A stretch of DNA of 18,175 bases, taken from the NCBI GenBank assembly GCA_023246955.1, contig JAHFHK010000020.1, forward strand, positions 1 to 18,175. Reading direction: 5' to 3'. This document shows positions 1-14,812 of this stretch, in pieces. A program made the position numbers and the translations under genes. The notes beneath the pieces are model-generated. The model had not been told where the DNA came from and did not search any database. It saw nothing but the letters and a program-made list of their open reading frames with translations. This DNA is from Candidatus Uhrbacteria bacterium (GTDB lineage: Bacteria > Patescibacteriota > Patescibacteriia > JACQRZ01). Numbering within the stretch: the first letter of the stretch is position 1; each line of letters begins with the position of its first letter.

Positions 1-1
1 A

Positions 2-1033: not shown

Positions 1034-1107
1034 CACACACCGGGGGGCTGCCTCATTCTGGGGCAGTTTTTTTGTTTTCAAACCGTATACTGTTGACAAT
1101 TCATCCC

Positions 1108-1136
1108 TTGTCAGTTTTTCCTTCGCCTGGTACAGT
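1108..1136 (+). promoter_or_regulatory. Candidate sigma70-type promoter (TTGTCA-17bp-TACAGT) upstream of the CDS at 1177; a TTGACA hexamer also lies at 1093-1098
   Basis: Seen in sequence: TTGTCA at 1108-1113, a 17-bp spacer, and TACAGT at 1131-1136. This is about 40 bp upstream of an AGGAGA Shine-Dalgarno at 1161-1166. Confidence 0.3.
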
Positions 1137-1176
1137 GTACTTTCGCACATTAACAACCGAAGGAGAATATGAACTC

Positions 1177-1812
1177 ATGACTACAACAATAATGGCAGAC
1201 CAGGCGATTTCAGGAGGGGCGGTGATATCTGAGATATTTCATGCTCTCAAAGGCGCTCTTGTTCATCGTGGTGCGCAGCTCATCAGAATAGGAGAGATTG
1301 TTCGATCGTGGGAGGATCGATACCCCACTGCACCCATTCTCTCCTCAGGAGGAGGTCTGGTGGGATATGTTAGTTATCGATTTGCGTATATAGTGCGTTT
1401 TGAAAACCGTGGCTATATTATCGCTCATGGCAATACTCATTGTCCCTCCTGCATCGTTGATCTCTGCATTCGCACGATCCCCAGGATTGAGAAGGGATCA
1501 TCGTTTGATGACACCTTACGAATGGCTCTTGAAACGAACCGTTCTTTTGCATATTCGCCTCTCATTGCTCGCAACAATGGATTGCTCGCAGCGCGTAGCC
1601 CCTATGCCGAAGAGTGGGCGGCCAAGTCTCGCCCCGTGCAGATCCCCGTCGATCGCTTTGTGAGTGCCCAGGAGCAACACCACCGGTATCCTGTGCGCGA
1701 CAATACCTCTGTCCATGCATACTGTAGTGATATTATCGGTAGTCTCTGCACTATGATCGCCATCGCACTCGAAGCGTTTCGGGAACCGGAGATACTCTCA
1801 TATATCTCCTGA
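1177..1812 (+). CDS. Hypothetical protein (211 aa from the ATG at 1177; the track ORF 1072..1812 extends further upstream in frame)
   Basis: The in-frame ATG at 1177 is preceded by AGGAGA (1161-1166) at about 10 nt spacing. The upstream in-frame stretch 1072-1176 has no better start and overlaps the promoter-like region. No recognisable domain. Confidence 0.55.
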   Translation: MTTTIMADQAISGGAVISEIFHALKGALVHRGAQLIRIGEIVRSWEDRYPTAPILSSGGGLVGYVSYRFAYIVRFENRGYIIAHGNTHCPSCIVDLCIRTIPRIEKGSSFDDTLRMALETNRSFAYSPLIARNNGLLAARSPYAEEWAAKSRPVQIPVDRFVSAQEQHHRYPVRDNTSVHAYCSDIIGSLCTMIAIALEAFREPEILSYIS

Positions 1813-1828
1813 TGCGTCACAATAGTCC

Positions 1829-1861
1829 GAAACCAGGTTAATCCCCCTGGTTTCTTTTTTT
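1829..1861 (+). terminator. Rho-independent terminator for the CDS at 1177..1812
   Basis: Stem GAAACCAGG (1829-1837) pairs with CCTGGTTTC (1846-1854) around an 8-nt loop, followed by a T7 tract at 1855-1861. Confidence 0.65.
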
Positions 1862-1889
1862 ACCCGTAGCCGCATGATACACTATAGAT

Positions 1890-2243
1890 ATGCCTACCTC
1901 ACTTCTCATTATCATCGCGGTTCTCGCTGGGTCGTTCAGTAATGTCCTCATCAAGATCGGAACGGGACAGATTCCTGCGGTTTCTGTGTCGCTACGATCA
2001 CTCCTCGGGATCGCTACGAACCCGTATATCGTCGTAGGGGTTTTTCTCACGGTCGTCACCTTCCCAACCTATACGGCGATCTATCAGCGGATGACCCTCG
2101 GGCAGGCGTTTCCTCTTATAACGAGCTCAATGTTTGTGGTCGCGACCCTCGCTTCTGCCCTCTTTCTCAAAGAGGCATTGACGCCTGTCAATTATTTGGG
2201 TATAGTAGTGGTCGTCCTGGGTATTTGGCTCATGACGCGGTAA
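1890..2243 (+). CDS. Small 4-TM membrane protein, DMT superfamily-like (EamA/ArnE-like half-transporter)
   Basis: 117 aa with four hydrophobic segments and no soluble domain. The pattern YQRMTLGQAFPLITSS...ALFLKEALTPVNYLGIVVVVLGIWLM resembles the conserved core of EamA/ArnE-type small membrane proteins. It starts about 30 nt after the upstream terminator. Confidence 0.6.
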   Translation: MPTSLLIIIAVLAGSFSNVLIKIGTGQIPAVSVSLRSLLGIATNPYIVVGVFLTVVTFPTYTAIYQRMTLGQAFPLITSSMFVVATLASALFLKEALTPVNYLGIVVVVLGIWLMTR

Positions 2244-2267
2244 GTTCCTTTTAGCAGAAATATATAT

Positions 2268-2342
2268 GGTGGCCATGGTGTAGTGATAACACTAGAGGTT
2301 GTGGTCCTCTCGTCACGGGTTTGATCCCCGTTGGCCACCCCA
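2268..2342 (+). tRNA. tRNA-His (anticodon GTG) with an encoded G-1 and 3' CCA
   Basis: Cloverleaf folded by hand. G-1 (2268) pairs with C73 (2339). The acceptor stem is GTGGCCA (2269-2275) paired with TGGCCAC (2332-2338). U8 is at 2276. The D stem is GTGT/ACAC with loop AGTGATA. The anticodon stem is AGAGG (2294-2298) paired with CCTCT (2306-2310), with loop TTGTGGT, so the anticodon GTG is at 2301-2303. The variable loop is 4 nt. The T stem is ACGGG/CCCGT with loop TTTGATC. CCA is at 2340-2342. The 3' end ...CCACCCCA is the same His-tRNA 3' end as in E. coli tRNA-His, which carries the extra 5' G. Confidence 0.8.
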
Positions 2343-3974
2343 TGAGCGAAAAGCGAGGTTCAAAGCCTCGTTTTTGCTTTTAGTAGAAACAAAAGCCTCT
2401 GGTTCCAACGTAGCTGCTGCTTTTACGATTCCATTTCTGTGGTTGGAAATAGGATTAATCCATTCAGAGCGCTCAAATGTCACTACTTTATCTTTCAAAA
2501 CAAAACTCTGTCCTAAAGTTTGAAGTATGATTCTTTTTTCCTTCAACCCTCCTTTAATAAACCGTTCTCGTGCATGTGTCACGAAATCAAAAGCTTGCTC
2601 CATTTTCTTCAACCATTCTTCCGCACTATTGTGATTTTCATCTAATCTCTCCTTTGCAATGATAAGCTCCTTTTGGAGGATAATTTTTCTCGAGGCGTAT
2701 TCAACATCAGTAAGAAGGTCTTTTAATCTCAAATCCGTTAGCGTATCAATTTTTTGCTGTATTTCAACATATCTTTTTTCATTTACATAACGTGACCCAT
2801 TTCGCAAAGCGACTTCAGCTTCATGCTGCTCTCGCATCTCGGAAAGCGCCCAGTCCTTGAATTCTTCGGGAATGGTGAACCTCTCTATTTCACCAAGAAT
2901 CTGCTTTTCGAGGAGAGGAAGGGTTATGGAAGGTTCTTTACACTTTATTCCCTGCTTTCTTCGTGTACAGCGATAATAAACGTATTTAGCTTGTTTACCT
3001 GTGGATTTAATGAGCTTCTGTTTTTCTTGAGCAGTCACCATACAACCACAGTCTCCACAACGTATAAGCCCTGTAAATGCAAATTCGTGCGTCTTGGGAC
3101 GTATTTGGTTCTTATTGCCAAGTATCGCTTGTACTTGCTCATATTCTTCCATGGTAATCATTGGTACATGGTTGCCCTTATAGGTCTTTCCGTCGTACTG
3201 GAATAATCCTGTATAAAAAGGATTGTGAAAAATCCGATACCAGGTAGCCTGACCAATAGGGTTCCCGCCCCTCCTCTTTCTTTTTGGAGTAGTAAGTGCA
3301 AACTTTGTATGAGCAATCTCCATAATCTCTGAAACAGTGTGACCTCCTTCCAGCAACATATCCCAGCATTTCCTCATCACCATAAAACGCTCTGCATCTT
3401 TAACAATTGTTTTATTGATTACGTCATTCTTGTATCCGAGGGGTGGAACACCAGGAAATCCACCACGTTCTATTTTGCCCCTTATCCCTCGCTTCGTATT
3501 TTTGCGAAGGTCGATAATAAACTGATTCGCACTACCACTTTCAATATTGAGAAGCAATACGTTATCGCTTGGCAGATAAGTTCTGTCTATAGTACGAACC
3601 TCCTTCAAGACTTCTCTTTGCAAGAACCATGATATTTGTGCGCTATCTATAGGGTTTCGAGATAGTCTATTGTATTGCCAACACAGAATAGCGTCTGCAT
3701 CCCCCTTATCAATCCTCAACATCATCTCATTGAATACTGGTCTTATTTTTGGTTCTTTTGCAGATTTTGATTCAGTAAGAACATCTATAATATCCAGTCC
3801 AAGATGATTTGCCATTTCTTGGAGCCTATTTATCTGGTCATCTATAGATTGCACTTGCCTATCATCCGCCTCTGAAGACTTACGCGCATATAGAAAATAT
3901 CGAGGTTTTACGACTGCATTTTCTGATTGATACATAGTGGCAATATTATTTGTAATTATAAATCGTTTTAACAC
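2313..3974 (-). CDS. Large serine recombinase (integrase): resolvase-type catalytic domain, recombinase domain, zinc ribbon and coiled-coil
   Basis: The N-terminus carries the serine-recombinase catalytic motifs YARKSSEADDRQVQSIDDQ (active-site Ser) and ILCWQYNRLSRNPID. A mid-protein Cys cluster CGDCGCMV...YYRCTRRKQGIKC fits a zinc ribbon, and a long C-terminal helical region follows. The track start is a GTG at 3974 lying directly against a GGGAGG with no spacer, so the true start may be the ATG at 3935 (MYQSEN...). The last ~28 codons are encoded by the tRNA-His 3' end and its terminator. Confidence 0.85.
   Translation of the reverse strand: MLKRFIITNNIATMYQSENAVVKPRYFLYARKSSEADDRQVQSIDDQINRLQEMANHLGLDIIDVLTESKSAKEPKIRPVFNEMMLRIDKGDADAILCWQYNRLSRNPIDSAQISWFLQREVLKEVRTIDRTYLPSDNVLLLNIESGSANQFIIDLRKNTKRGIRGKIERGGFPGVPPLGYKNDVINKTIVKDAERFMVMRKCWDMLLEGGHTVSEIMEIAHTKFALTTPKRKRRGGNPIGQATWYRIFHNPFYTGLFQYDGKTYKGNHVPMITMEEYEQVQAILGNKNQIRPKTHEFAFTGLIRCGDCGCMVTAQEKQKLIKSTGKQAKYVYYRCTRRKQGIKCKEPSITLPLLEKQILGEIERFTIPEEFKDWALSEMREQHEAEVALRNGSRYVNEKRYVEIQQKIDTLTDLRLKDLLTDVEYASRKIILQKELIIAKERLDENHNSAEEWLKKMEQAFDFVTHARERFIKGGLKEKRIILQTLGQSFVLKDKVVTFERSEWINPISNHRNGIVKAAATLEPEAFVSTKSKNEALNLAFRSWGGQRGSNP
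2354..2380 (+). terminator. Rho-independent terminator downstream of tRNA-His
   Basis: Hairpin CGAGG (2354-2358), loop TTCAAAG, CCTCG (2366-2370), followed by TTTTTGCTTTT. The tail TTTTGCTTTTAGTAGAAA recurs at 18149-18166 behind another terminator hairpin. Confidence 0.5.
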
Positions 3975-4603
3975 CTCCCGCCATACTCCCTAATGAGAAG
4001 GTTGCAGACAATCTTCGCCATACTCGTTTTACTAACTGATTTTTGTTTCCGTAAAATCTTGTAGACCTCTTTTGTTACCCCTACTCTCTTATAGATGGTC
4101 AAACCTTCTTCCTTTTTATACATAAACTCTATGTATTATGAGTAATATATTGCCTTATAACTGGGCTCTCCCTCAAATCTATCCCTAAGAATCAATATCG
4201 CGTGTACTCCCTTTAAGGTTGTCCTTTATTTATGTTCCAGGATTTCCCTTGGTGGCACAGGTTGTCAAGGCGTCGAAAATCTTGTTTCGACTCAAAGCCT
4301 ATACTACATTCTTGAGGGTGAGTTCGCGGTCGCCAGTTTTAGTAAGCCAAAAGACTTTAGCTCTCTCCTAACTGACGTGAATGATTTGATATGGGCTTGT
4401 AAACAACTTGAAGTAACAGAATCAATTGAGTTCCCTTTTTTCGCGCCTCACTTTCAGACAAAGCAATACCAAACTTCGCTTGGTAAATTTCCTGAAATTG
4501 TTGGATTTTCTTTGCTGAAAGTTCCACAAAAAAAGAATCAAGATTGATACCTTGACTCTATAACAAATAAACCTGATTCTGAGTTAGTGGAATTAGTGGA
4601 AAA

Positions 4604-5434
4604 TTATTTTCCCATAAATATAATGTATTTATTGTTTTTTCCGTTCCTAAATTCCACTGGGAAGTAATTACCTTTCTTCCATGAAAAATCTTTTCTTAAC
4701 TTATTAAAGACATCCTTCACCTGCTCCCAGTTATTGAAAGATTTATCATCGCCCAAGAAAGACTTTGTATACTCGGCTACCGTATCAGGTTTGAGCTTCA
4801 TTCCTCGCCATTCTTCAAGTATAGATAAAAGAGCGTACGAGTAGGTGCCTTTTGTATATACTACTCTGCGACCATCAAAATAAAGCTCACCAGTCTCTTT
4901 ATAAAAACGAGGTTCATTTCTTTCAGTGTATATCTGATGTGCTAAATCAACCTCCAGCTCAAAAGTTATAGTATCGCCCGATATCGCCTCAACCTTGGCA
5001 GAGATAAGCCCTATCTCATTCTTATTTTCAAGCTCTAATAGCCCAGCAATTAAACTAAAGGAATCAAACTCCCCTCTTGGATGCTTAACATCTTCGGGCA
5101 AATCTAGTATCCATAACGAATAATTTATTTTTATCCTTGTTGTAGCGGGTAAAAAACGCCTATCCATCTTTAGCGAATTAAGGAAGTTCTTTTTTATATC
5201 CAAATCATCCCCGGGATATGAACGTGGAATTATAAAGCTAGAATCGAACTCTCGAAAACAATAAAATAACCGAGGGCGGGCAATTAAAGACCTATTTATC
5301 AGACCAATCAAAATATCATAGGATTTTGATTCTTCCTTTTCATTAATATTAAAATTTTCAATGAGACTTTTATAGTAATCATCAAGACCAAGATAGTAAG
5401 CGAGTTTTTGCGTCTCAAGCGTTTTCCCAAACAT
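4604..5434 (-). CDS. Hypothetical protein (276 aa), island cargo
   Basis: Long minus-strand ORF with AT-rich codon usage like its neighbours. I recognise no catalytic motif. A weak AAGGAG lies rather far (about 17 nt) from the ATG. Confidence 0.5.
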   Translation of the reverse strand: MFGKTLETQKLAYYLGLDDYYKSLIENFNINEKEESKSYDILIGLINRSLIARPRLFYCFREFDSSFIIPRSYPGDDLDIKKNFLNSLKMDRRFLPATTRIKINYSLWILDLPEDVKHPRGEFDSFSLIAGLLELENKNEIGLISAKVEAISGDTITFELEVDLAHQIYTERNEPRFYKETGELYFDGRRVVYTKGTYSYALLSILEEWRGMKLKPDTVAEYTKSFLGDDKSFNNWEQVKDVFNKLRKDFSWKKGNYFPVEFRNGKNNKYIIFMGK

Positions 5435-5567
5435 AAGTAGCTAAATACATACTCCTTTGTGTTTACTCCATCCAACGACAAAAAGCAACATATTGCTGGA
5501 CGAGAGACGACATTCTTGATAGTATCAAAGTACAATTTAATTGCCTAAACCCATGTTTTCTGACGTG

Positions 5568-5662
5568 GGCATGGCGTAAAAGCTCACAACAATACTGAAC
5601 CCCGCGTTCAGCGACTTGTTGTGAGTCATGCCTCGAAAGGGGTATGGAGCCGAAAGGCTCAG
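5568..5662 (+). ncRNA. Candidate structured RNA or cis-regulatory element (nested hairpins) in the divergent intergenic region
   Basis: Outer stem GGCATG (5569-5574) pairs with CATGCC (5628-5633). Inside it, a perfect 10-bp stem CTCACAACAA (5584-5593) pairs with TTGTTGTGAG (5617-5626). That stem encloses a hairpin CTGAAC-CCCGC-GTTCAG (5596-5612). A GNRA hairpin GAGCC-GAAA-GGCTC follows at 5648-5661. Strand and function are undetermined. Confidence 0.3.
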
Positions 5663-5741
5663 CTGGCACGGGGCTTTGTGTTTTATTAAGCCACTGCCAG
5701 TAATTTCACCTATTTATTACACTTAATTCATATTTTTATAT

Positions 5742-6236
5742 ATGGAAACAAAGCCAAAAAAGCCGTTTTATAAAGTATGGTGGTTCTGGGCAATCGTTGT
5801 GGTGGTTCTAATAGCTATTGGGTCATCGGCTAAGCCACAGACGCCCACAGGCACTCCACAAGCTCAAAAAGAGGCATCTACGACCACGGAGCCGAAAAAA
5901 GAGGTTCCCGCAGCTCCTAAGGAGGCAGTAATCAAAACAACGGCAACAGAGCTATATGACGCCTATGACGCTAATCAGATTGCGGCAGATGAGAAGTACA
6001 AAGGTAAGACTCTCGAGATAACGGGTACTATCTACAGTATCGGCAAAGACGTTCTGAACTCCCCTTATGTACAGCTTGAGGCAAAGAACCCTTTACTCGG
6101 TGTACAGTGCTATTTAAGCAAAGATGAGGCGTCTAAGGCTGCCACACTTCAGAAGGGACAAAAGGTAACACTTAAAGGACGTGGTGACGGTAAAATCTTG
6201 AATGCAATGGTCAAAGACTGTGTGATAGTTCAATAA
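5742..6236 (+). CDS. Membrane-anchored OB-fold protein (tRNA_anti-like / DUF-type; N-terminal TM anchor, Pro/Thr-rich linker, C-terminal OB domain)
   Basis: Signal-anchor sequence KKPFYKVWWFWAIVVVVLIAIGS, then a low-complexity PT/K-rich linker. The C-terminal domain has the pattern ELYDAYDANQIAADEKYKGKTLEITGTI...VQLE...LKG...V, typical of the tRNA_anti-like OB-fold family of Firmicutes lipo/membrane proteins. Assigned from memory. Confidence 0.6.
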   Translation: METKPKKPFYKVWWFWAIVVVVLIAIGSSAKPQTPTGTPQAQKEASTTTEPKKEVPAAPKEAVIKTTATELYDAYDANQIAADEKYKGKTLEITGTIYSIGKDVLNSPYVQLEAKNPLLGVQCYLSKDEASKAATLQKGQKVTLKGRGDGKILNAMVKDCVIVQ

Positions 6237-6256
6237 AATATCTCAGTCGCGATAAG

Positions 6257-6280
6257 ACGCCCCCACAAAGGGCGTTTTAT
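6257..6280 (+). terminator. Rho-independent terminator after the CDS at 5742..6236
   Basis: Stem ACGCCC (6257-6262) pairs with GGGCGT (6270-6275) around loop CCACAAA, followed by TTTT(ATAAT). Confidence 0.55.
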
Positions 6281-6287
6281 AATATGG

Positions 6288-6560
6288 CTACACACTTACA
6301 ACCTCATGGCTTAGCGCTGACATTCGAGCGCTATCAATCAGTTCATTAATCCTATTTATCTGCATATCTATATCTTGAGTGTAGTAGTTCGTTTCAACTG
6401 CCTGTTTGTTTGCAAACAACTTATCCAGGAGCTTTACAAGCATTTTTATGTCACCTTCAAAGCATTTTTTGGCAAATACATGCTTGGCTCCAAATTCCCC
6501 TGATATAATAATTTCGTCTAACGAATTCTCAGTGATTCTTCCCTCCCAAACAGCAATCAA
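6288..6560 (-). pseudogene. Doubtful small ORF or gene remnant (90 aa from a TTG start; the frame stays open another 35 codons upstream to 6665 with no start codon)
   Basis: The only possible starts are TTG at 6560 or an internal ATG, and there is no Shine-Dalgarno. The in-frame upstream extension ...LSAPYGNTNSVGHRSGGGRPSAYKEQSDADF(L)IAVWEG... has no initiator, which suggests an N-terminally truncated or decayed gene. Confidence 0.3.
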
Positions 6561-6799
6561 AAAGTCAGCGTCACTCTGCTCTTTATAAGCACTTGGTCGC
6601 CCTCCTCCTGACCTATGTCCGACTGAATTGGTGTTTCCGTAGGGTGCGCTCAGATGTTTTTGTTGTTAGAAACAATTCTTTTTCATATTAGATGAAAAAT
6701 CAAATATAATCTACAAATACAACCCTTGTATTAAAGACTTTTTCTGTTAGAATTGAGGGTAAAGCAGGCAACTACACACGACACGACCTAATAGTATCT

Positions 6800-7420
6800 A
6801 TGAACAATAACTTAAATTTTACATTCTACGACACAATAAGCTATCTCGTCCCTGGATTACTATTGCTATTCGCTTCTAATCGAATTTTCTCATTGGAATT
6901 TGACATTAATAATGTCAATCCTTTAGTCTACTTTGTCACCGCATATGTATGCGGGGCAGTGTTGAATATGCTTAGCCTATTTCTCTATCGTCATATTGAA
7001 ACAAAGATTAAGTTTATCGAGAAAATTGCACGACTTTCAAAATACATCACCATACCAGTGCGTCGTGTAGAATACACGAGAAACGAATTAATCACACTAG
7101 TAAAGGAAAAGTACCGCTTAGATTTCACAAAAGACAAACTTGGGCTGTACGTTTTTGCAGATACAGTAACATCAAACTCAGCAATTGCAGATAAGGACGT
7201 ATTAATAGCCAAAGAGGGTTTTTTTCGAAATCTAACCGTAGCCATCTTAGTGGTTTCTTGCCTCACCTTCAAAGAGCTGGGTAGTCATGTCACCTTTCTA
7301 CTTGGTGGTTTACTGCTTTTTGAACTGTGCTACTACGGCAGAGAGCACTACAAGGAACTCAAAAACCAAAAAATATACATGTTGGCTTACTTCAAGATAA
7401 ATGAGAACAAAACAATATGA
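6800..7420 (+). CDS. Multi-pass membrane protein (206 aa, about 4 TM), first gene of a coupled pair
   Basis: Hydrophobic segments LVPGLLLLFASNRIF, LVYFVTAYVCGAVLNMLSLFLY, LTVAILVVSCLTF and FLLGGLLLFELCYY. Its stop overlaps the next gene's start (ATGA at 7417-7420). No Shine-Dalgarno. Confidence 0.6.
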   Translation: MNNNLNFTFYDTISYLVPGLLLLFASNRIFSLEFDINNVNPLVYFVTAYVCGAVLNMLSLFLYRHIETKIKFIEKIARLSKYITIPVRRVEYTRNELITLVKEKYRLDFTKDKLGLYVFADTVTSNSAIADKDVLIAKEGFFRNLTVAILVVSCLTFKELGSHVTFLLGGLLLFELCYYGREHYKELKNQKIYMLAYFKINENKTI

Positions 7421-8325
7421 TTGACTGGAAGTCCAATGACTTAGATGTTTATCTATGGGACGTGGGTCATGGATTGTCTATGACGTTCATAACACCTTTT
7501 GTCTCCTTCGCTGGTGACGTACCAATTAACCGCCGCAGAGTAATTCAAATTGATGTTGGGACAAATAATGAATATAGCTTTTCCCCCGTAAAGTTTCTTG
7601 TAGAAAAAACTGGGCTCAGTACGATTGACTACCTTATTATCTCTCATCCCGACCAAGACCATATAAATGACTTGGTCAACATCAATGAGTTGTGTACAGC
7701 AGGTAAACTTCAGGTTACAAGATTTAGGCGAAATCACACAATACCAAACAATGTAATAAGTGAAGATGCAAACAAAGAGAGTACTGCAAAAACCGTCTAT
7801 AAAAACATGCAAAATACTTATATTTACCAGCATCTACCCCATGACGATGTTAATCCTGATAACTTTGCTGGATTAACTATTAAGACTGACTATATAGAGT
7901 ATGAAGATGGCATGGACATAAATGACGCCTCGGTCGTTACGAATATTTTATTTGGAAACACCCAATTATTAATACCAGGAGATTTGAGCGAAGTAGGGTT
8001 TAATAAACTAGCCTTAGCGGGAAAAGCCCCAGCGGTAATAGATAGAGCAACAAGAATACTGGTTGCGCCACATCACGGAAGAGAATCTGCCGAAGGTATT
8101 TATCTTGTAAACCATCTTAAGCCACATATCGTATTAGCCTCCGCCAAAGTGGGTGATGAGCACACCGACAGACTTTATAGTCAGTCTCAGAATATTCAAG
8201 GACACAATGTAGTAAATGATTCTGGAACAATTACCCAATATAGATTTTTGGCGACCAAGGGGCAGGTAATTAGTCTCAAGATTGTAAATGATAGCCCAAT
8301 TATAAAAAAAATCTCTTACAAATAA
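7417..8325 (+). CDS. Stand-alone metallo-beta-lactamase-fold protein of the ComEC/Rec2 C-terminal type (predicted nuclease/hydrolase)
   Basis: Three motifs match the ComEC C-terminal MBL domain: LWDVGHGLS (ComEC: lDVGqGd), IISHPDQDHINDL (ComEC: SHaDaDH) and VAPHHGRESAEG (ComEC: vPHHGS). It is translationally coupled to the upstream TM protein. Confidence 0.8.
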   Translation: MIDWKSNDLDVYLWDVGHGLSMTFITPFVSFAGDVPINRRRVIQIDVGTNNEYSFSPVKFLVEKTGLSTIDYLIISHPDQDHINDLVNINELCTAGKLQVTRFRRNHTIPNNVISEDANKESTAKTVYKNMQNTYIYQHLPHDDVNPDNFAGLTIKTDYIEYEDGMDINDASVVTNILFGNTQLLIPGDLSEVGFNKLALAGKAPAVIDRATRILVAPHHGRESAEGIYLVNHLKPHIVLASAKVGDEHTDRLYSQSQNIQGHNVVNDSGTITQYRFLATKGQVISLKIVNDSPIIKKISYK

Positions 8326-8376
8326 CGACCATATTAGATGACATACGTCCACTAGACCATCATCAAGGTTCCCACG

Positions 8377-8435
8377 TCCTCCACTACGTGACCCCACGAG
8401 GACATCTGTCGAAAGGCAGGTGTTTTTGTTTTGAG
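8377..8435 (+). repeat. 59-bp repeat, copy A (includes an intrinsic terminator hairpin)
   Basis: About 93% identical to 9093-9151 (TCCTCCACTACGTRACCCCACGA...CATCTGTCGAAAGGCAGGTGTTTTTGTTTTGAG). Confidence 0.7.
8403..8432 (+). terminator. Rho-independent terminator (GNRA tetraloop) for the MBL gene
   Basis: CATCTGTC (8403-8410), GAAA, GGCAGGTG (8415-8422): an 8-bp stem with two G.U pairs. Followed by TTTTTGTTTT. Confidence 0.6.
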
Positions 8436-8439
8436 TACT

Positions 8440-8940
8440 TCAATCTGCTTTTTTCAATGAATAGCGAAAGAGCTCTGCGACCTTTGTTTTCAAATCCTCA
8501 TCGCTCAGATTATGGACGGTGCTGTCCGCTACAATAATGGCAAGGTGATAATAGAAAAAATCATCTGGCAAAAAATCTCTATCTGTCTCTTCTGGGACAT
8601 AATCAGGGAAAAACTCCTTTAGTTTCTTGGCATACATTTCCTTGGAATGATGTGCAAATCTATAACCATTATCAAAAGCAAATATAAGAGATACGATTAT
8701 GGCCAATCTCTTGTTGCCATTTGAGAAAAAATGACTTCTATCAATGCCTAAGAATAAGAATGCAACTTTATCGTAAAAATCTGGATAATATATACCTTCA
8801 GATCTTTGCAAAATAGCCTCAAGTTGCTTTATTCCGCCCACTTCGCTTTCATAGCTTGGGGCTTTATTCAAAACATCATCCATATTCCTATAGATGATGT
8901 CGAAGCAAAACTCTAAATCTTCCAATATTAAATACTTCAT
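8440..8940 (-). CDS. Doc/Fic-family toxin (death-on-curing-like, type II TA toxin)
   Basis: Contains HFFSNGNKR, which matches the Doc signature H-x-F-x-(D/N)-G-N-K-R; the Fic signature is HPFx[DE]GNGR. 166 aa. Its ATG overlaps the stop of an upstream 41-codon ORF (ATGA). Confidence 0.7.
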   Translation of the reverse strand: MKYLILEDLEFCFDIIYRNMDDVLNKAPSYESEVGGIKQLEAILQRSEGIYYPDFYDKVAFLFLGIDRSHFFSNGNKRLAIIVSLIFAFDNGYRFAHHSKEMYAKKLKEFFPDYVPEETDRDFLPDDFFYYHLAIIVADSTVHNLSDEDLKTKVAELFRYSLKKAD

Positions 8941-9062
8941 CGTGTTGATAATTTCTTTATTGCCCTGCCCACTTTTTTTGTAATCTCATCAGCAATACGC
9001 TCATTGGCACTTTTCGACCGTCTTGAGGGTGCAGCTTTTTGTATCTTTGGAGTTTTAATCAT
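8937..9062 (-). CDS. Putative antitoxin (41 aa; not in the ORF track because it is under 60 aa)
   Basis: Hand translation of the minus strand gives ATG(9062)...MIKTPKIQKAAPSRRSKSANERIADEITKKVGRAIKKLSTR, with the TGA overlapping the Doc ATG. A TATAAT -10 lies on the minus strand 7 nt upstream (plus-strand coordinates 9071-9076). Basic and helical, as expected for a small DNA-binding antitoxin. Confidence 0.4.
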   Translation of the reverse strand: MIKTPKIQKAAPSRRSKSANERIADEITKKVGRAIKKLSTR

Positions 9063-9092
9063 ATGGGGTTATTATACACTTTAATTCCAGCA

Positions 9093-9151
9093 TCCTCCAC
9101 TACGTAACCCCACGAAAGCATCTGTCGAAAGGCAGGTGTTTTTGTTTTGAG
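9093..9151 (+). repeat. 59-bp repeat, copy B (second copy, on the other side of the Doc cassette)
   Basis: Direct repeat of 8377-8435 with 4 substitutions and the same GAAA-tetraloop hairpin plus T-tract. No plus-strand gene ends upstream of it. Confidence 0.7.
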
Positions 9152-9270
9152 GAAAAATAAAAAGCTCAGGGTCTTTATGGACCAAAGAGCTCATTAATAT
9201 TCTATTTATCTTTGTAAGAAGATTTGTCTGTCCTATACGGTAGTAGACGGGACTTTATATATACGTCGGC

Positions 9271-9317
9271 ATCTTCCCATAATAGCCATTGACCCCTCGG
9301 TTCACTTATGGGAAGAT
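9271..9317. promoter_or_regulatory. Perfect 12-bp inverted repeat with a 23-bp spacer; candidate operator or recombination site at the putative island boundary
   Basis: ATCTTCCCATAA (9271-9282) and TTATGGGAAGAT (9306-9317). The spacer contains TTGACC. TATGAT at 9321-9326 and the ATG at 9342 follow immediately. Confidence 0.35.
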
Positions 9318-9341
9318 AGGTATGATATTTTTGCTACAAGA

Positions 9342-10106
9342 ATGCGACCTCTTATGAAATTCCTTCAAGCTTTCGTCAAAAAAATCGTGGGAACAAAGGT
9401 GCTGCTTTCTCTGGTTTTGATACTTTCTCTCTTGAACATATACCAGGTACTCTCTCCCTTGAAAATAGCGCAGGGACAGGAAGAGTATGATTCAGAGAAG
9501 AAAATCAAATATATCGAGGCTTACCTTGACCATATATCAGATGATTATATCGTGAGCGTCAAACAACTCGCCGACCAATACCATATTCCGTCATGGGGAT
9601 GTGGCCCTTCGAGCTATGCACTCGCGCAGATACTTAATAGGAAATTTTTTGATAACAAGCTTACTATAGGACCAACGTATGACGAGACCCGCCCTTATGA
9701 AATCGTGGAGCGCTTCCGCTTTAGGAAGGATGATACGGGAGGGGCGGTTGACCATGCGTGGCTCGAGATCTACTTGCGGGACCAGGTGCTTTTTGTTGAT
9801 CCTACTATTGCTCAGTTCGGAAAAACCAAAGGAATTGCCTATGAGGTTTTTGATGTGGGTGACCCCTCTATAGCCAAAAGCCTGAAAGAACGTTATGGCA
9901 TCCTTGATGCAAAAATGGGCGCAGTACTCAAAAAAACTATCAATAGAGTCCCCGTAGAGCAGGAGCCATACCCTGGGCTCATCATTAGCCAGGATTTCGT
10001 AGACTACTACACTAAAGCTATTGAGGTTCGTAATGGCATTGCTGACGACAAGATACCCGATGACTGGAAGATCTGGGTCAAGCAGCTTACTGATCGGTAT
10101 TTATAG
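9342..10106 (+). CDS. Membrane-anchored transglutaminase-like cysteine protease domain protein
   Basis: N-terminal signal anchor (VLLSLVLILSLL). The Cys/His/Asp triad is in transglutaminase-core context: WGCGPSSYALAQ (Cys), VDHAWLEIY (the H-A-W-x-E motif) and FVDPT (Asp). Confidence 0.6.
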   Translation: MRPLMKFLQAFVKKIVGTKVLLSLVLILSLLNIYQVLSPLKIAQGQEEYDSEKKIKYIEAYLDHISDDYIVSVKQLADQYHIPSWGCGPSSYALAQILNRKFFDNKLTIGPTYDETRPYEIVERFRFRKDDTGGAVDHAWLEIYLRDQVLFVDPTIAQFGKTKGIAYEVFDVGDPSIAKSLKERYGILDAKMGAVLKKTINRVPVEQEPYPGLIISQDFVDYYTKAIEVRNGIADDKIPDDWKIWVKQLTDRYL

Positions 10107-10221
10107 CTATTGGCCTGTGGCGGTAACGAAGGCATCAGGAGCCCATTGTCCCCTAGCTTGACGCCAAGGGGCAGGCATTGTACTATCGAATTATTAGTTC
10201 ATTAATACGGAGGTATTTTCA

Positions 10222-10557
10222 ATGGATGGTTTTCCTGCGGGGGTGAACCCCTTTTCTATGAACGTTGATGAAACGATTAATGATGGCTCGATGTGTAGCT
10301 ATGCGCCAGATTTCTTTGCTTGGAATGAGGATGACGAAATGTACTGCCCTTCTCCATCGAGCAGAAATACTGATTGTCCCCAGAAGGAAGCGGAGGAATT
10401 GGTGGGGGGACTCCTTGATGCAGACATTATAGGATCATTCGCCGTCAAGGAGCCTTATGCTCATATTATTCCTCAAGATCTGCGTGAAGCAATCAAGGTG
10501 ACCAGATCACACGATGGACTCTGTTCATCACAAGATTGCTACTCTTTGTCTTCGTAG
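10222..10557 (+). CDS. Hypothetical acidic, Cys-containing small protein (111 aa)
   Basis: GGAGG lies 7 nt upstream of the ATG. A TTGACG-17-TACTAT promoter-like sequence sits at about 10166-10194. No recognisable domain. Confidence 0.5.
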   Translation: MDGFPAGVNPFSMNVDETINDGSMCSYAPDFFAWNEDDEMYCPSPSSRNTDCPQKEAEELVGGLLDADIIGSFAVKEPYAHIIPQDLREAIKVTRSHDGLCSSQDCYSLSS

Positions 10558-10575
10558 CTAGAGGGAGGTGTGGCG

Positions 10576-10899
10576 GTGATACGGCTCAACTATCTTGTTC
10601 TTCGATGTAGGGATCTTTCTGGGACAAAACGGTTTTACGAGGCTCTCGGGCTTTCTTTCCAGGAAGAAAAACATGGCGCTGGTCCCATCCACTTCTCTAC
10701 GTGTATTTCTGGTGTGGTCGTGGAGCTCTATCCTTTGCGGGATGATACCGCCAGTACGACAGATCCTTGTCGCATCGGAATTACCGTCGACAGTGTGAGT
10801 AATGTGGTGCCTGTTCTTGAAACCCTTGGCATGGAACAGTACGCGACCCTCTGTTTCCGTGATCCGGATGGACGTATCGTCGAGCTATCCGAGGTGTAA
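10576..10899 (+). CDS. VOC-family (glyoxalase/bleomycin-resistance fold) protein
   Basis: RLNYLVLRCRDL...FYEALG...GITVDSV...CFRDPDGRIVEL fits the paired beta-alpha-beta-beta-beta VOC fold pattern. GAGGGAGG at 10561-10568 favours the GTG at 10576 over the GTG at 10570 given in the ORF track. Confidence 0.65.
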   Translation: MIRLNYLVLRCRDLSGTKRFYEALGLSFQEEKHGAGPIHFSTCISGVVVELYPLRDDTASTTDPCRIGITVDSVSNVVPVLETLGMEQYATLCFRDPDGRIVELSEV

Positions 10900-10903
10900 T
10901 ACT

Positions 10904-10970
10904 CTATGACCTGAACGTGTCTTTAAACCGTTCTTTTTTTTATAAAAAAGACCGTGAAAATTTCACAGTC
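10904..10970. terminator. Bidirectional terminator region between convergent genes
   Basis: GAACG...CGTTC hairpin followed by a T8 run (10934-10941) for the plus strand. An AT palindrome T8-AT-A6 sits at 10934-10949. A GTGAAAATTTCAC palindrome (10954-10966) is followed on the minus strand by T-rich sequence, serving the minus gene. Confidence 0.45.
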
Positions 10971-11004
10971 CTATTTGGAATTCTATTGATATATTATGAG
11001 GTGC

Positions 11005-11793
11005 TTATCTCGAGGATGCTACAGGAACCGATTCGTTTTTTGTTGACTCCATCTCTCGCGAGTAAAAGAACCATGAGGTCTTCACTCCGTCGATCACTAC
11101 ACGATTCCCATGTCCCTTTGCTACTCTATAGATTTCTTGCTGGAGGCGCTTCAGCGAAAATTGTCTATCGGTTGGGTGCGCGAGGGCTATGACGTGCAGA
11201 GGGGTATGTGTGCTAAAGAATGATCCGAGGCCGTCATTGCCCATGGCTATTGTCATATATCGCTTTAGCTCTTCTTCGGCTGCAGGACTATAGTAGCGAC
11301 TAATCACAAACCCCGGTGGAAGGCCTTCAATACGATTGAACTCTCCTGTACCATCGTAATATATTGCAACGGCATTATGGAAAGTTTTTGGGCGATTCAT
11401 TTCCTCTGCTGTAAGGTGGCGATATGATAGGCCGTATACGTTCGCTCTTCCCTTGTTATATTCTCGACACACTCGATTGCGATCCTCTTTTGCAATATTG
11501 GGAAAAGCGAGTGCAAATGCACCACAGTTGTCGTGTCCCGTAAGCTCAGTAATCTCGGCGCGCTGTACCATGCGTCTGCACATATCATCCGAGAGCAGAA
11601 CCCCCGATCCTGGTGAATGGATGCCGAAAGTGATACCTTCATCACCGCACGTGAGTGTTTCCGATCCCCTGAATGCTTGCCTGATATTTTTATTTTTCAG
11701 AAATAGTTTCCGAGCACCGAGCTGTTGTAGTTCCCGAATCCATATAATGGCTTCAGTGCGTGCAATATTTCTTTCATTGTCAATATACGTCAT
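11005..11793 (-). CDS. Hypothetical protein (262 aa) with a conserved-looking ELTGHDNCGAF segment
   Basis: Long ORF, convergent with the VOC gene. The motif is not one I can place in a family. Confidence 0.55.
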   Translation of the reverse strand: MTYIDNERNIARTEAIIWIRELQQLGARKLFLKNKNIRQAFRGSETLTCGDEGITFGIHSPGSGVLLSDDMCRRMVQRAEITELTGHDNCGAFALAFPNIAKEDRNRVCREYNKGRANVYGLSYRHLTAEEMNRPKTFHNAVAIYYDGTGEFNRIEGLPPGFVISRYYSPAAEEELKRYMTIAMGNDGLGSFFSTHTPLHVIALAHPTDRQFSLKRLQQEIYRVAKGHGNRVVIDGVKTSWFFYSREMESTKNESVPVASSR

Positions 11794-11929: not shown

Positions 11930-13933
11930 TTATTTTTCGATTTGTACGACTTTAGCGCCATTGTCACTGGCTACTTGTGCTACTTCGTCTTTTATCATAG
12001 TCGCAATAGTATCCTTGGATACTTCTCTTCCAAAAACACTTTTTGCCGCGCCAGAGAGCTTCTCGGCAATCTTATCGATCATGCCTTGACCCAGCATCTT
12101 CACACCTTCAGGCGTTGTCTCGGTAACTCCTTCAAGGAATCCGCCGATCTGCTGGCCCTTCATAACACTTCCGAGTATCGCCTGGAGCATTGCAGGATCC
12201 CCGTAGATCCTGAGGTCTGCCGCCGACAGAGCGTTACCGATTGCATTCGCTTGCGCTATCCCTATTTCTTTCAGGGACGCAATCTTTGCAAGCTCTATCT
12301 GGAGATCAATTGCCGCTCTTTCGAATTGCTGTTGGTTCTCCAATTGCTTACGATCAACTTCGACCTGTGCAGCGTTGACGGAAACTTGGCTTCGAGCAAC
12401 CTCTACTGGCACCATCGCAATAGCTTGTTGGCCTGCGGCATCCAGTTCTTTTGATTGCTTGTTGGCCTGGGCGAGGGTGAGCTGTGCATTGGCTTTCGCT
12501 AATGCTGCTTTTTCTTCTCCTTCTGCCTGAGTCACCGTCGCGTAGGCTGCCATATTTGCATCATTTTCGCGTTCGATGCTTATTTGTTTGGCAGTCGCTT
12601 CTTTTTGGATGATGCTCACTGATTTTTGTCGTTCGGCTTCAGCAGTCTTTTCGACTGTCAGTTTTTCCTGTTCTTTTCTCGTTCTATCGATTTCTGCGGT
12701 AACGCGCTCAGCTTCCGCTACAGCACGGCGTTTTTCCGCTTCCGCTACCGCAATCTGTTGCTCTCGGGTTTGGACCTGTACCGCCTGTTCCCTTTCAATA
12801 CCTGCCGTCTGGATTGCCTTTTCTTTCTGTACGTTGGCGGTCTGCAGTGCCTGTTCTTTTGCAATTTGCGCCGTCTGGACCTCCCGCTCTTGTGTATTTT
12901 CGGCAACCTGAACCGCCTTAGCTTTCTCGACCCGCGCGATATCTACGGCTTGTTCAGCCGCAACTTTCGCCAGTTCTGCTTGCTGCTCTTGCCCCGCTGC
13001 GAACTCTATCGCTTTTCTGGAAGCTTCGGCTTGTGCATTTTTTATCGTGACGTCACGTGCTGCTTCAGCGGTTGCGCGAGCGACTTCTTGATTAAACAAC
13101 TCTTTGTCGCGCTCAACTTCCTGAGTCTTTACGTCCCTGTCAGCATCCGCCGTAATTTTTGATCGCTCCACTCTCTGACTTGCGATAATATGTGCAATTT
13201 GTTTTGCACCCTGCGCATCAAACACATTGTTTTCTGGATCAAGGAGCCCGGGAGGGGTTTGATTGAGATGCGAAATCGCCACCGTTTCCAGAAAGAGTCC
13301 GTTAGGTGCAAGATCGCGTTCGACGATCTCTTTCACATGGTCTTTGTACTCATCGAGTTTGCTATGAAGATCTTCGAGCTTGGATCGGGCGGCCACTGTC
13401 CGCATCGCCGATACAAGCTTTTCTCCAACAAGATCCATTACCGCACTGGCATCATAGGACTTTTGGCCCAATGATGTTGCGGCGGCAATTACCCCTTCGA
13501 CGGTTCTGTTCACCCGGATATAGAATTCAGCACGCACGTCGGCACGCAGATTGTCCCCCGTGATGAGCGCATCTTTACTAAAGCGTTGGACGACGAGTTT
13601 ATTGGTTTCGAGCGACACCCTCCGCACCTTGTGCACGGTAGGGATCACTAATGCACCACCATCAATGACGGCACACTGACCACCCATCCCGGTACGCACG
13701 AATGCTTCATTGCTTCCTGCTTTTTCGTAAAAAGATATGAATGCACCCATTACGGAACCAGCAATCAATAACAATACCCCGAATCCTATAAGGATGATTT
13801 GTGCTACCCCACTAATATGGACGCTCGGTAACAATGCAGGGAGGAGCAATGGTCCTCCGATAAATATCAACGCGGTGGCAACGAGGATGAGAAACATCCC
13901 CCCGCCTTTACTTTCGTTATCATCTTTAGCCAT
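11930..13933 (-). CDS. Flotillin-family (SPFH/band-7) protein, YqiK/FloT-like, with an extended Ala/Glu/Gln-rich repeat region
   Basis: N-terminal TM hairpin, then an SPFH domain (...EAFVRTGMGGQCAVIDGGALVIPTVHKV...FYIRV...), then about 250 aa of EA/Q-rich repeats with roughly 11-residue periodicity, then a C-terminal flotillin-tail-like region. AAGGA Shine-Dalgarno 9 nt upstream. Lies immediately downstream of a NfeD-like gene. Confidence 0.85.
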   Translation of the reverse strand: MAKDDNESKGGGMFLILVATALIFIGGPLLLPALLPSVHISGVAQIILIGFGVLLLIAGSVMGAFISFYEKAGSNEAFVRTGMGGQCAVIDGGALVIPTVHKVRRVSLETNKLVVQRFSKDALITGDNLRADVRAEFYIRVNRTVEGVIAAATSLGQKSYDASAVMDLVGEKLVSAMRTVAARSKLEDLHSKLDEYKDHVKEIVERDLAPNGLFLETVAISHLNQTPPGLLDPENNVFDAQGAKQIAHIIASQRVERSKITADADRDVKTQEVERDKELFNQEVARATAEAARDVTIKNAQAEASRKAIEFAAGQEQQAELAKVAAEQAVDIARVEKAKAVQVAENTQEREVQTAQIAKEQALQTANVQKEKAIQTAGIEREQAVQVQTREQQIAVAEAEKRRAVAEAERVTAEIDRTRKEQEKLTVEKTAEAERQKSVSIIQKEATAKQISIERENDANMAAYATVTQAEGEEKAALAKANAQLTLAQANKQSKELDAAGQQAIAMVPVEVARSQVSVNAAQVEVDRKQLENQQQFERAAIDLQIELAKIASLKEIGIAQANAIGNALSAADLRIYGDPAMLQAILGSVMKGQQIGGFLEGVTETTPEGVKMLGQGMIDKIAEKLSGAAKSVFGREVSKDTIATMIKDEVAQVASDNGAKVVQIEK

Positions 13934-13984
13934 GTTTCATGTTCCTTCTTTCTTTGTGAGATATTTTTTCTGATATATTCCCTA

Positions 13985-14812
13985 CTACGCTTCGAAAGGA
14001 CATACAATACACCTCCCCTTTTCTTCTTCGTAGTTAGTAATGAGAACACTGCTTCCCGATGGAAGCGATGAGCCATCGTCCGTTACGCACTTCATTTCTA
14101 TTCGGTTCTTGTGAGCATCGAGTACTGCTATGACACCACTTTCTGAAGTTATGGTCATAACCGCAGTCGCTATTTGCCCCACAAACTCTGCTTCTCTTTG
14201 TCCATATGTCTCGGTGCTCGGCATCATTTTTCCAATGATGTTTGCCAAGATTCCTGTCAGGAGAAATGCTCCCAGGAGGGCAAGCCCTATAGACGGGAGC
14301 AGGACTATTTGCGGAGCACGTGCCGTTACGCCAAAGATTTGGTTTGCACAGAGCCCTATACTCCCCCAGAGTATGGAAAAACACGAGAGTATTACCATAA
14401 ACGGGGCTTTTCCTATCCCCATCAAACTCAGCATTTTTGCGGCTGCGCTTGATGAGTCATTCGTATGCCCTCCTGATTCGTGATGCGCGTGAGCGTGCCC
14501 ATGTGGCACCACATGTGAATGGCCTACTGAATGATCGTGATGAATGTGTATGTGGTGCATGCCGTGGCCTATATGTATCAGGCCCATAGCCTGCAACACC
14601 ATTTGCAACGTTGCCGCAAAGAATGGAAGAACAAAAATAAGGTTCCACCATTCTAGTAACTCTACGATCTGCATTCGATCTATTCCTTTCCCTAATCGGT
14701 AATTTTCAAAGAACCCCCTTTCTATCCGCTTTCTTCGCGAATATACCTTCTGTATAGCACATATATGTATATCGTCAAGTGTTTGGGGTGTTATAATGGT
14801 AGGGAGCGTCAT
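13985..14812 (-). CDS. NfeD/YqiJ-like membrane protein (flotillin partner) with an internal His-rich segment
   Basis: TM helices followed by a C-terminal OB-fold-like beta region (GQIATAVMTITSESGVIAVLD...VLITNYEEEKGRCIV). The gene order NfeD-like then flotillin matches yqiJ-yqiK and yuaF-floT. The actual start is probably the internal ATG at 14674 (MQIVELLEWW...), which leaves room for divergent promoters. A His-rich insert HIGHGMHHIHIHHDHSVGHSHVVPHGHAHAHHESGGH is present. Confidence 0.7.
   Translation of the reverse strand: MTLPTIITPQTLDDIHICAIQKVYSRRKRIERGFFENYRLGKGIDRMQIVELLEWWNLIFVLPFFAATLQMVLQAMGLIHIGHGMHHIHIHHDHSVGHSHVVPHGHAHAHHESGGHTNDSSSAAAKMLSLMGIGKAPFMVILSCFSILWGSIGLCANQIFGVTARAPQIVLLPSIGLALLGAFLLTGILANIIGKMMPSTETYGQREAEFVGQIATAVMTITSESGVIAVLDAHKNRIEMKCVTDDGSSLPSGSSVLITNYEEEKGRCIVCPFEA

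Follow-up and report, generated by a model that had tools for sequence, protein, structure and literature searches.

A Csx27-superfamily membrane protein paired with a stand-alone ComEC-type metallo-beta-lactamase on an integrative island: a probable divergent relative of PDC-M48 and candidate defence module of mobile elements

Csx27 was reportedly described by Smargon and colleagues in 2017 as an accessory protein of type VI-B1 CRISPR-Cas with four transmembrane (TM) helices, and the 6A-MBL anti-phage system is said to have its source in work by van den Berg and colleagues in 2024. The present analysis concerns a pair of genes on an 18,175 nucleotide (nt) stretch of DNA from a Candidatus Uhrbacteria bacterium (contig JAHFHK010000020.1; the whole stretch is called the window below). 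Gene A (6800–7420, + strand) encodes a predicted inner-membrane protein of 206 amino acids (aa) with four TM helices that we assign to the Csx27 superfamily, and gene B (7417–8325, + strand) a 302-aa stand-alone ComEC-type enzyme of the metallo-beta-lactamase (MBL) fold, predicted to be a cytoplasmic two-metal DNase. The Csx27 family has been linked by Makarova et al. (2019) to components of natural transformation, as relayed in PMC7642515, and secondary sources credit the same study with the proposal that its members form single-stranded DNA (ssDNA) channels; the association with transformation genes has thus been in print since 2019, and secondary sources also attribute to that study operons of the family with ubiquitin-like E1/JAB proteins and MBL enzymes. 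6A-MBL is reported as an anti-phage system in a review (PMC13276650) and is represented in NCBIfam by the models NF058523 and NF058524. In the trypsin-MBL modules (HamM in Hachiman and Avs1a in AVAST type 1, among others) ComEC-like MBL DNases are abortive-infection effectors, latent proenzymes that are activated by an adjacent trypsin-like protease (PMC12799240; bioRxiv 10.1101/2025.09.03.673762). PADLOC-DB v2 further holds PDC-M48, a two-gene cassette (FAM_01875 followed by FAM_00178) with 63 instances, and the 'phage defence candidates' (PDC) to which it belongs were identified through guilt-by-embedding, as genes nested within BREX, DISARM or type I restriction-modification (RM) loci (Payne et al., 2024, bioRxiv 10.1101/2024.01.29.577857).

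As in PDC-M48, the two genes of the window are adjacent and on the same strand, with a small membrane protein first and a stand-alone MBL second. B matched the PDC-M48B model PDLC04675 with E=6.5e-32 and 108.9 bits (residues 7–279 against positions 3–265 of a 291-position profile) and three more PDC-M48B models more weakly. The resemblance is nevertheless that of a distant relative, as a core PDC-M48B member scores 313 bits where the B of the window scores 109, and A with its 206 aa is longer than the PDC-M48A profile of 164–166 positions. From these comparisons of sequence the pair is very probably a divergent member of the module 'Csx27-like TM protein followed by PDC-M48B-type MBL' that PADLOC carries as candidate PDC-M48. 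It is therefore not a new type of system, its architecture being in PADLOC under that name. A preliminary description, made from the letters of the DNA, had taken the pair to be uncatalogued and the four-TM partner to be an unrelated protein; the first claim gave way to the PDC-M48B match and the shared gene order, and the second to the relationship of A with Csx27 (E=1.1e-5 for A itself and matches for 96 of 134 relatives), which is set out below.

Gene B carries the motifs DVGHG (at residue 15), SHPDQDH (76), PGD (187) and PHHG (218). Across 35 homologues H77, D81, H82, D189, H219 and H220 are invariant and D79 is kept in at least 90%, and the 60 homologues found at E<=1e-3 are consistently stand-alone proteins of 260–340 aa. 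Matches of B to Pfam Lactamase_B models were all below threshold, and TIGR00361 (ComEC_Rec2) was matched at 1.4e-6 with 26.8 bits (cutoff 190) over the C-terminal part of the model only. A search of the PDB with a profile built from the 35 homologues ranked the ComEC MBL domain 9ic4_A first (E=8.5e-21), structures of full-length ComEC next and the choline esterase Pce behind these. The AlphaFold2 (AF2) model of B (predicted local distance difference test, pLDDT, 92; predicted template modelling score 0.92) likewise found 9ic4 first in Foldseek (E=7e-13, template modelling scores 0.62/0.70), with Pce next and the nucleases IntS11, CPSF73 and RNase J after it. B has the same H-x-D-x-D-H, aspartate of PGD/ADI and PHHG as the ComEC/Rec2 domain (PDB 9ic4; full-length 30bt and 9vcb), and in the HMMER alignment its H77, D79, D81, H82, D189 and H219 fall on H598, D600, D602, H603, D700 and H725 of ComEC, the six residues whose substitution by alanine abolished or reduced Mn2+-dependent DNase activity (PMC12455585). 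Since neither a signal peptide nor an N-terminal hydrophobic or TM segment was found in B, whose beta-strands begin at residue 9, the protein is predicted to be cytoplasmic. In this it differs from ComEC, where the MBL/nuclease domain is extracellular (PMC8579336, abstract) and fused to the channel, whereas B is a separate, soluble protein that has neither an oligonucleotide/oligosaccharide-binding (OB) fold nor a Competence channel domain. The model and the alignments thus show B as a soluble enzyme of the cytoplasm that shares its fold with the nuclease domain of ComEC and has kept all of the two-metal active site. With a hidden Markov model (HMM) of the B family, stand-alone relatives scored above about 150 bits and 39 full-length ComECs 52–108 bits, and because this split is cleanly bimodal we regard B as belonging to a distinct stand-alone lineage and not as a fragment of ComEC. 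It should also be noted that residues 166–249, in the C-terminal half of B, matched PHROG 7043, annotated 'tail protein' (2.7e-12, positions 767–847 of 1077), as well as phrog_14556 (9.4e-10), so that some phage tail proteins appear to carry a ComEC-like MBL domain.

For gene A a hydropathy scan showed four hydrophobic helices, which the AF2 model places at residues 9–30, 41–66, 130–157 and 163–201, although this model (seven helices in all) is only moderately confident, with a pLDDT of 69. Loop 2 is 76 aa long and contains 16 K/R residues and the C-terminal tail contains five, whereas loops 1 and 3, both short and acidic, have none. Because of this positive-inside pattern A is predicted to have both termini inside, with the basic, helical loop 2 and the tail in the cytoplasm; the conserved motifs of the protein, KEGFFR and the C-terminal tail YGREHYKELKNQ (the tail segment carries YGREYYKELKNQ), would both lie on that side. 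A matched the PADLOC model for Csx27 along its full length (E=1.1e-5, residues 7–201 against positions 4–204 of 206) and PDC-M48A (PDLC04671) weakly and over the TM1–TM2 portion only (E=0.092), while its score with NCBIfam CAS_Csx27 was 22.5 bits, below the cutoff of 65. A word-indexed search returned seven relatives only. Window A and six further members of its family all matched Csx27, at 2e-8 to 3e-3 (7/7), and matches of seven members to PDC-M48A ranged from 1e-4 to 0.1, close relatives reaching 1.3e-4. When 1.84 billion representatives were searched exhaustively with HMMER, 142 A-family proteins came up at E<=1e-3, nearly all of 200–260 aa. The Csx27 model was matched by 96 of 134 A relatives (best 4.4e-16), the VI-B 'tm_4' model by 37 and PDC-M48A by 30. 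Hallmarks of the family are an N-terminal YD-x3-YL-x-PG, a glycine in TM2 and (K/R)EGF(F/Y)R ahead of TM3. When the family was compared by hhalign with an alignment of the 39 full-length ComECs the probability was 0.1%, i.e. no similarity to the ComEC channel was found. Like Csx27 itself, A has about 200 aa and four predicted TM helices, but unlike the Csx27 of type VI-B loci it falls below the NCBIfam equivalog cutoff and comes without cas13b or a CRISPR array (the window contains no ORF of cas13b size, no CRISPR-like tandem array and no match to a CRISPR family of Rfam). On the strength of these profile matches A is best placed as a member of the Csx27 superfamily that is not an orthologue of Csx27.

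The two genes overlap in the four letters ATGA (7417–7420, + strand), in which the TGA of A and the ATG of B share letters (ACAATATGATTG), and this overlap suggests that the translation of A and B is coupled. In the loci referred to below as L007, L001 and L004 the genes of the homologous pairs share 4, 11 or 14 nt. Upstream of A there is a weak match to a sigma-70-like promoter (TTCATA-17-TATAAT, 10/12; 6682–6710, + strand), and promoter-like sites are no more frequent in this region than in shuffled sequence (nine found, shuffle mean 10.2). Between B and the convergent gene doc, RNA folding gave a hairpin of 15 bp (8396–8429, unstranded, within a 67-nt repeat described below) that is capped by a GAAA loop, lies between an A-rich stretch on the 5' side and a U-tract, and is probably a bidirectional terminator ending the A–B unit; a consensus terminator scan performed no better on the sequence than on shuffles and did not report this hairpin. 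That A and B are a chance pair of open reading frames (ORFs) can be set aside because both have homologues and because their adjacency, A then B, recurs. The preliminary description had been accurate about the ORFs and their lengths, the ATGA overlap, the three motifs of B and the four TM helices of A, and its view of B as a stand-alone MBL of the ComEC C-terminal type is borne out by the intact active site and by 9ic4 as best match.

An A-like gene directly followed by an MBL gene was found in 12 out of 12 contexts examined, the two genes either overlapping or being separated by a gap of at most 9 nt. These contexts are the window, L001, L004, L007, L090, L093, L094, L095, L105, L107, L108 and L109, the last three of which were recovered through their A-like genes (E=8e-33, 2e-19 and 4e-7). 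Most of them are prophages, conjugative elements or plasmids, and the carriers, which include a serine-integrase island, tyrosine-integrase elements, conjugative elements with a type IV secretion system (T4SS) and plasmids, span Bacteroidota, Patescibacteria and Halobacteria. The clade of the pair is found mostly on contigs of uncultured organisms, and the labelled relatives, including the nearest homologues of the pair, are from Candidatus Paceibacterota metagenome-assembled genomes (MAGs). L001 and L093 are prophage-like, with N6_N4 methylases, a LexA/S24-type repressor and a gene for an HTH_Tnp_1_2-domain protein that may be a terminase small subunit. L001 also gave a faint match to terminase large subunit, and its repressor, A and B genes resemble one operon at the edge of the prophage, ahead of chromosomal RNR and RNase P RNA genes. 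In L004 the order is repressor, pair and serine recombinase; L094 has a tyrosine integrase, Rep_O and a Cro/CI-like helix-turn-helix gene; L107 an integrase, Dam, a NucS_C-domain protein and a methylase; and L108 is a conjugative element with an S24 repressor and T4SS genes. A repressor with LexA_DNA_bind and Peptidase_S24 domains thus lies beside the pair in L001, L004, L093 and L108 (in the same direction in L001 only, divergently in the others), which hints at control of the cassette by SOS or by the immunity region of the element. The closest homologue of the pair (67% identity for B and 57% for A) is in L007, on a conjugative element and within a stretch (1–6597) densely occupied by candidate defence genes. 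There it is preceded by a methylase, Vsr and a complete PDC-M33ABC (2e-135, 2e-63 and 3e-35), the C component with DUF6339, and ahead of a PycTM-like gene and of genes for a relaxase and a coupling protein similar to TrwB. We take A–B to be one co-transcribed, translationally coupled cassette that moves between mobile elements.

More distant loci show how far the partnership extends. L105, a plasmid of Adhaeribacter swui, encodes the core PDC-M48B member mentioned above (5e-94, 313 bits) with a Csx27-like gene ahead of it; the Csx27-like protein was related to the A family by hhalign (84%, E=7.5e-6), has YD..YL.PG and (K/R)EGF(F/Y)R in common with it and, although partner of a core PDC-M48B, matched PDC-M48A at only 1.5e-4. 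The order is reversed in two loci of haloarchaea, the Haloplanus plasmid L104 and the Halobiforma contig L035, which have the Csx27-like gene downstream of the MBL gene. L091 (410–4744) is an operon of an MBL similar to the 6A-MBL enzyme (1.2e-13), an 828-aa E1/JAB fusion protein (best NCBIfam match 6A-MBL_cap2_3, 1e-46) and a 247-aa Csx27-like protein, P0094, which the exhaustive search recovered as a distant homologue of A (E=5.4e-9). It shows the architecture of the published association of the Csx27 family with E1/JAB proteins and connects the A family with ubiquitin-like conjugation systems. Beside distant stand-alone MBLs (30–35% identity, L010–L034) no A-like partner was found; there the MBL is accompanied by a second MBL paralogue, by an overlapping ORF of about 370 aa or by small unrelated TM ORFs, and the partners of distant PDC-M48B-like MBLs (L010–L035) gave no match in PADLOC. 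The strict linkage of A and B therefore holds from the A side and in the close clade of B, and not for all PDC-M48B-like MBLs, and since the distant MBLs have other partners the nuclease is to be seen as modular. As to the arrangements themselves, a second, divergent MBL paralogue adjoins the MBL in L011, L015, L018, L025, L029, L033 and L035, an MBL, small TM ORF, MBL order is present in L018 (5923–8344) and L029 (5923–8466), and the overlapping downstream ORF of about 370 aa is present in L021 (6785–7924), L023, L026 and L080.

The window pair shares a ComEC-like MBL enzyme with 6A-MBL, and the 6A-MBL-like operon of L091 includes a homologue of A, but B scored only 15.7 bits with the enzyme model NF058524 (cutoff 220), and eight island proteins scanned with Pfam and PADLOC gave no ThiF or JAB match of the kind that a Cap2/Cap3-like E1/E2/JAB protein would give. 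With the trypsin-MBL modules the pair has in common weak matches of B to LmuA and RTasMBL, and relatives also match Avs1a; unlike there, the partner of B is a membrane protein and not a protease, no protease domain, trypsin-like or other, having been found in the eight island proteins scanned, which include the products of both genes beside the pair.

Taking these results together, we favour the view that the pair is a defence or exclusion module of mobile elements acting as a membrane-associated DNase, and would give this a probability of roughly 0.55. The preliminary description had offered phage defence among its suggestions, and defence or exclusion is still the best reading of the neighbourhoods, the function being inferred. 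As a working hypothesis, A would tether or gate B on the cytoplasmic side of the membrane, and upon entry of foreign DNA or a sensed infection B would cut DNA, probably with Mn2+, either destroying the invading genome where it comes in (exclusion) or degrading DNA indiscriminately (abortive infection), so that the prophage, integrative and conjugative element (ICE) or plasmid that carries the cassette would protect itself and its host from competitors. The use of a ComEC-like MBL as a latent defence effector has a precedent in the trypsin-MBL DNases, which are proven. If this view is right, the Csx27-like plus ComEC-type MBL module would be extended to mobile elements of the Patescibacteria type in a minimal version of two genes, free of an E1/JAB, protease or CRISPR partner, and so simple a pair would be well suited to the study both of Csx27-family function and of how a membrane protein might control a cytoplasmic ComEC-like DNase.

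Several observations weigh against the defence view. PDC-M48 is one of 145 phage defence candidates and has candidate status only (Payne et al., 2024, bioRxiv 10.1101/2024.01.29.577857), so that the question raised beforehand, whether the pair is already catalogued as a described system, is answered affirmatively as regards the match to PDC-M48 and negatively as regards anything beyond a candidate. Scans with Pfam and PADLOC found no BREX, DISARM or type I RM genes in the island of the window, and PADLOC gave no significant match for the six other island proteins scanned except for Doc (PDC-M59B). Because A matches PDC-M48A so weakly (E=0.092), PADLOC may also under-call the clade to which the window pair belongs. 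That B acts on DNA, as opposed to RNA or a small phosphodiester, is a presumption from homology, and its second-best structural neighbour, Pce, is a phosphorylcholine esterase. Csx27 itself is reported to dampen and not to enhance interference by Cas13b. Finally, IMG/VR viral contigs yielded eight distant relatives only and GenBank phages one, and these collections therefore lend no direct support to a phage-encoded clade.

One alternative is that the cassette serves the life cycle of the element itself, by degrading host DNA at induction, by controlling lysis–lysogeny or transfer, or as an addiction module with A as membrane toxin and B as its regulator. The pair does lie directly beside LexA/S24-type repressors in four elements and at the prophage edge in L001, and in the window it adjoins a Doc toxin–antitoxin cassette. 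We nevertheless consider this unlikely, as the same cassette occurs on unrelated types of element, which is better suited to portable accessory cargo, as joint expression with the repressor, apparent in L001, implies that the cassette is active in the lysogen, and as MBLs of the B type were first found embedded in BREX, DISARM and RM loci.

Distinctly unlikely, too, is a DNA-uptake device, i.e. a two-protein analogue of ComEC in which a Csx27-like ssDNA channel would be combined with strand degradation by the MBL, for scavenging or transformation. Patescibacteria rely on imported nucleotides, the closest relatives of the pair are in Patescibacteria MAGs, and B is most similar to the nuclease domain of ComEC. 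The operons with natural-transformation components and the ssDNA-channel proposal of Makarova et al. (2019), as given by secondary sources, also speak for uptake. Against this, the pair is carried by prophages, ICEs and plasmids and not by conserved chromosomal competence loci, and no ComEA, DprA or pilus genes adjoin it within the window. B is moreover predicted to be cytoplasmic where the ComEC nuclease domain lies outside the membrane (PMC8579336, abstract), and the hhalign probability of 0.1% separates the A family from the ComEC channel. A 'split mini-ComEC', which the preliminary description had named as its other possibility, was rejected on these last two grounds, the absence of similarity to 39 ComECs on the part of A and of an export signal on the part of B.

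It has also to be considered that B could be a phosphodiesterase acting on a small molecule or another substrate that is not a nucleic acid, for instance an ester of the phosphocholine type or a signalling nucleotide, with A as a membrane effector or transporter regulated by B. The second-best neighbour of B by structure and by sequence is the pneumococcal phosphorylcholine esterase Pce/CbpE, and the Pfam Lactamase_B matches are below threshold, superfamily membership alone not fixing the substrate. However, the best match by profile and by fold is the ComEC DNase domain with all catalytic residues kept, and Pce acts outside the cell whereas B is predicted to be cytoplasmic. Related defence MBLs were tried on beta-lactam, choline ester, RNA and DNA, and the activity named for them, once activated, is that of a DNase. 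A substrate of this other kind is accordingly quite improbable.

A more daring version of the tether proposed above would have the Csx27-like protein oligomerize into a membrane gate that conducts or senses nucleic acid, unrelated to ComEC and working in trans with a ComEC-type nuclease. We hold this to be a long shot, and mention it for what would follow if it were true: there would be a second, independently evolved 'channel plus nuclease' machine for handling DNA, with which mobile elements in Patescibacteria, Bacteroidota and haloarchaea would catch DNA at the membrane, and the part that Csx27 plays in type VI-B CRISPR loci would be accounted for. The idea that B belongs to the housekeeping MBLs (RNase J, RNase Z or glyoxalase II) or is the remnant of a disrupted full-length comEC, for which one could cite the sub-threshold generic Lactamase_B matches and a remote likeness in structure to RNase J, CPSF73 and ELAC, is effectively refuted by the HMM split between stand-alone relatives and full-length ComECs, by the uniform length of the stand-alone homologues, by the lack of a beta-CASP domain in B and of a Competence-domain ORF nearby, by fold scores of RNase J and CPSF73 well below that of ComEC, and by the setting of the gene in an island and in variable mobile contexts in place of the conserved chromosomal synteny on which the preliminary description would have given up its proposal.

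The surroundings of the cassette in the window agree with the AT-rich island with serine integrase and Doc module that had been described for it. The GC content is low (0.35–0.42) across most of 2501–9500, with an exception of 0.45 at 5501–6000, and is 0.45–0.56 in most windows outside. The low-GC island begins at a tRNA-His gene (2269–2342, + strand) and its right edge lies, judging from GC, at approximately 9.3 kb, with the A–B pair between the integrase and the Doc module. The large serine integrase (2313–3974, – strand; Resolvase, Recombinase and Zn_ribbon_recom domains), which we count as context outside the module, abuts the tRNA gene, and because the 3' end of its ORF overlaps that gene the element seems to have integrated at or into the 3' end of tRNA-His; no att-like direct repeat of this 3' end was found within 2200–11500. 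On the other side of the pair, and likewise as context, there is a Doc/Fic toxin gene (8440–8940, – strand; PF02661 with 27 bits and TIGR01550 with 38.6 bits, right at the cutoff), whose product also matched the PADLOC candidate PDC-M59B (3.7e-9). Upstream of doc and overlapping its start by 4 nt is a 41-aa K/R-rich ORF (8937–9062, – strand), a candidate antitoxin for which no family match was obtained. The Doc/antitoxin cassette is flanked by a 67-nt direct repeat (8369–8435 and 9085–9151, 90% identical), and in both copies a hairpin of 15 bp, capped by a GAAA loop, precedes a U-tract (z=-3.9 in the second copy). This suggests either the duplication of a unit that carries a terminator or the insertion of the toxin–antitoxin cassette in one piece.

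Further observations concern other parts of the window. A full-length LOOT RNA lies within the island at 5542–5660 (+ strand; Rfam RF03000, 85.1 bits against a gathering threshold of 46.4, E=3.5e-15), about 80 nt upstream of a gene for a tRNA_anti-like OB-fold membrane protein (5742–6236); beside the A–B pair it was absent in the 10 other loci checked. At 11930–14812 (– strand) there is a 667-aa ORF with an N-terminal TM segment and a long, repetitive region rich in A, E and Q, which shows an extreme AT skew (-0.54 at 12501–13000) and a 33-nt tandem repeat at 12804–12877. This ORF adjoins the gene of a 275-aa membrane protein that has the His-rich stretch HGMHHIHIHHDHSVGHSHVVPHGHAHAHH.

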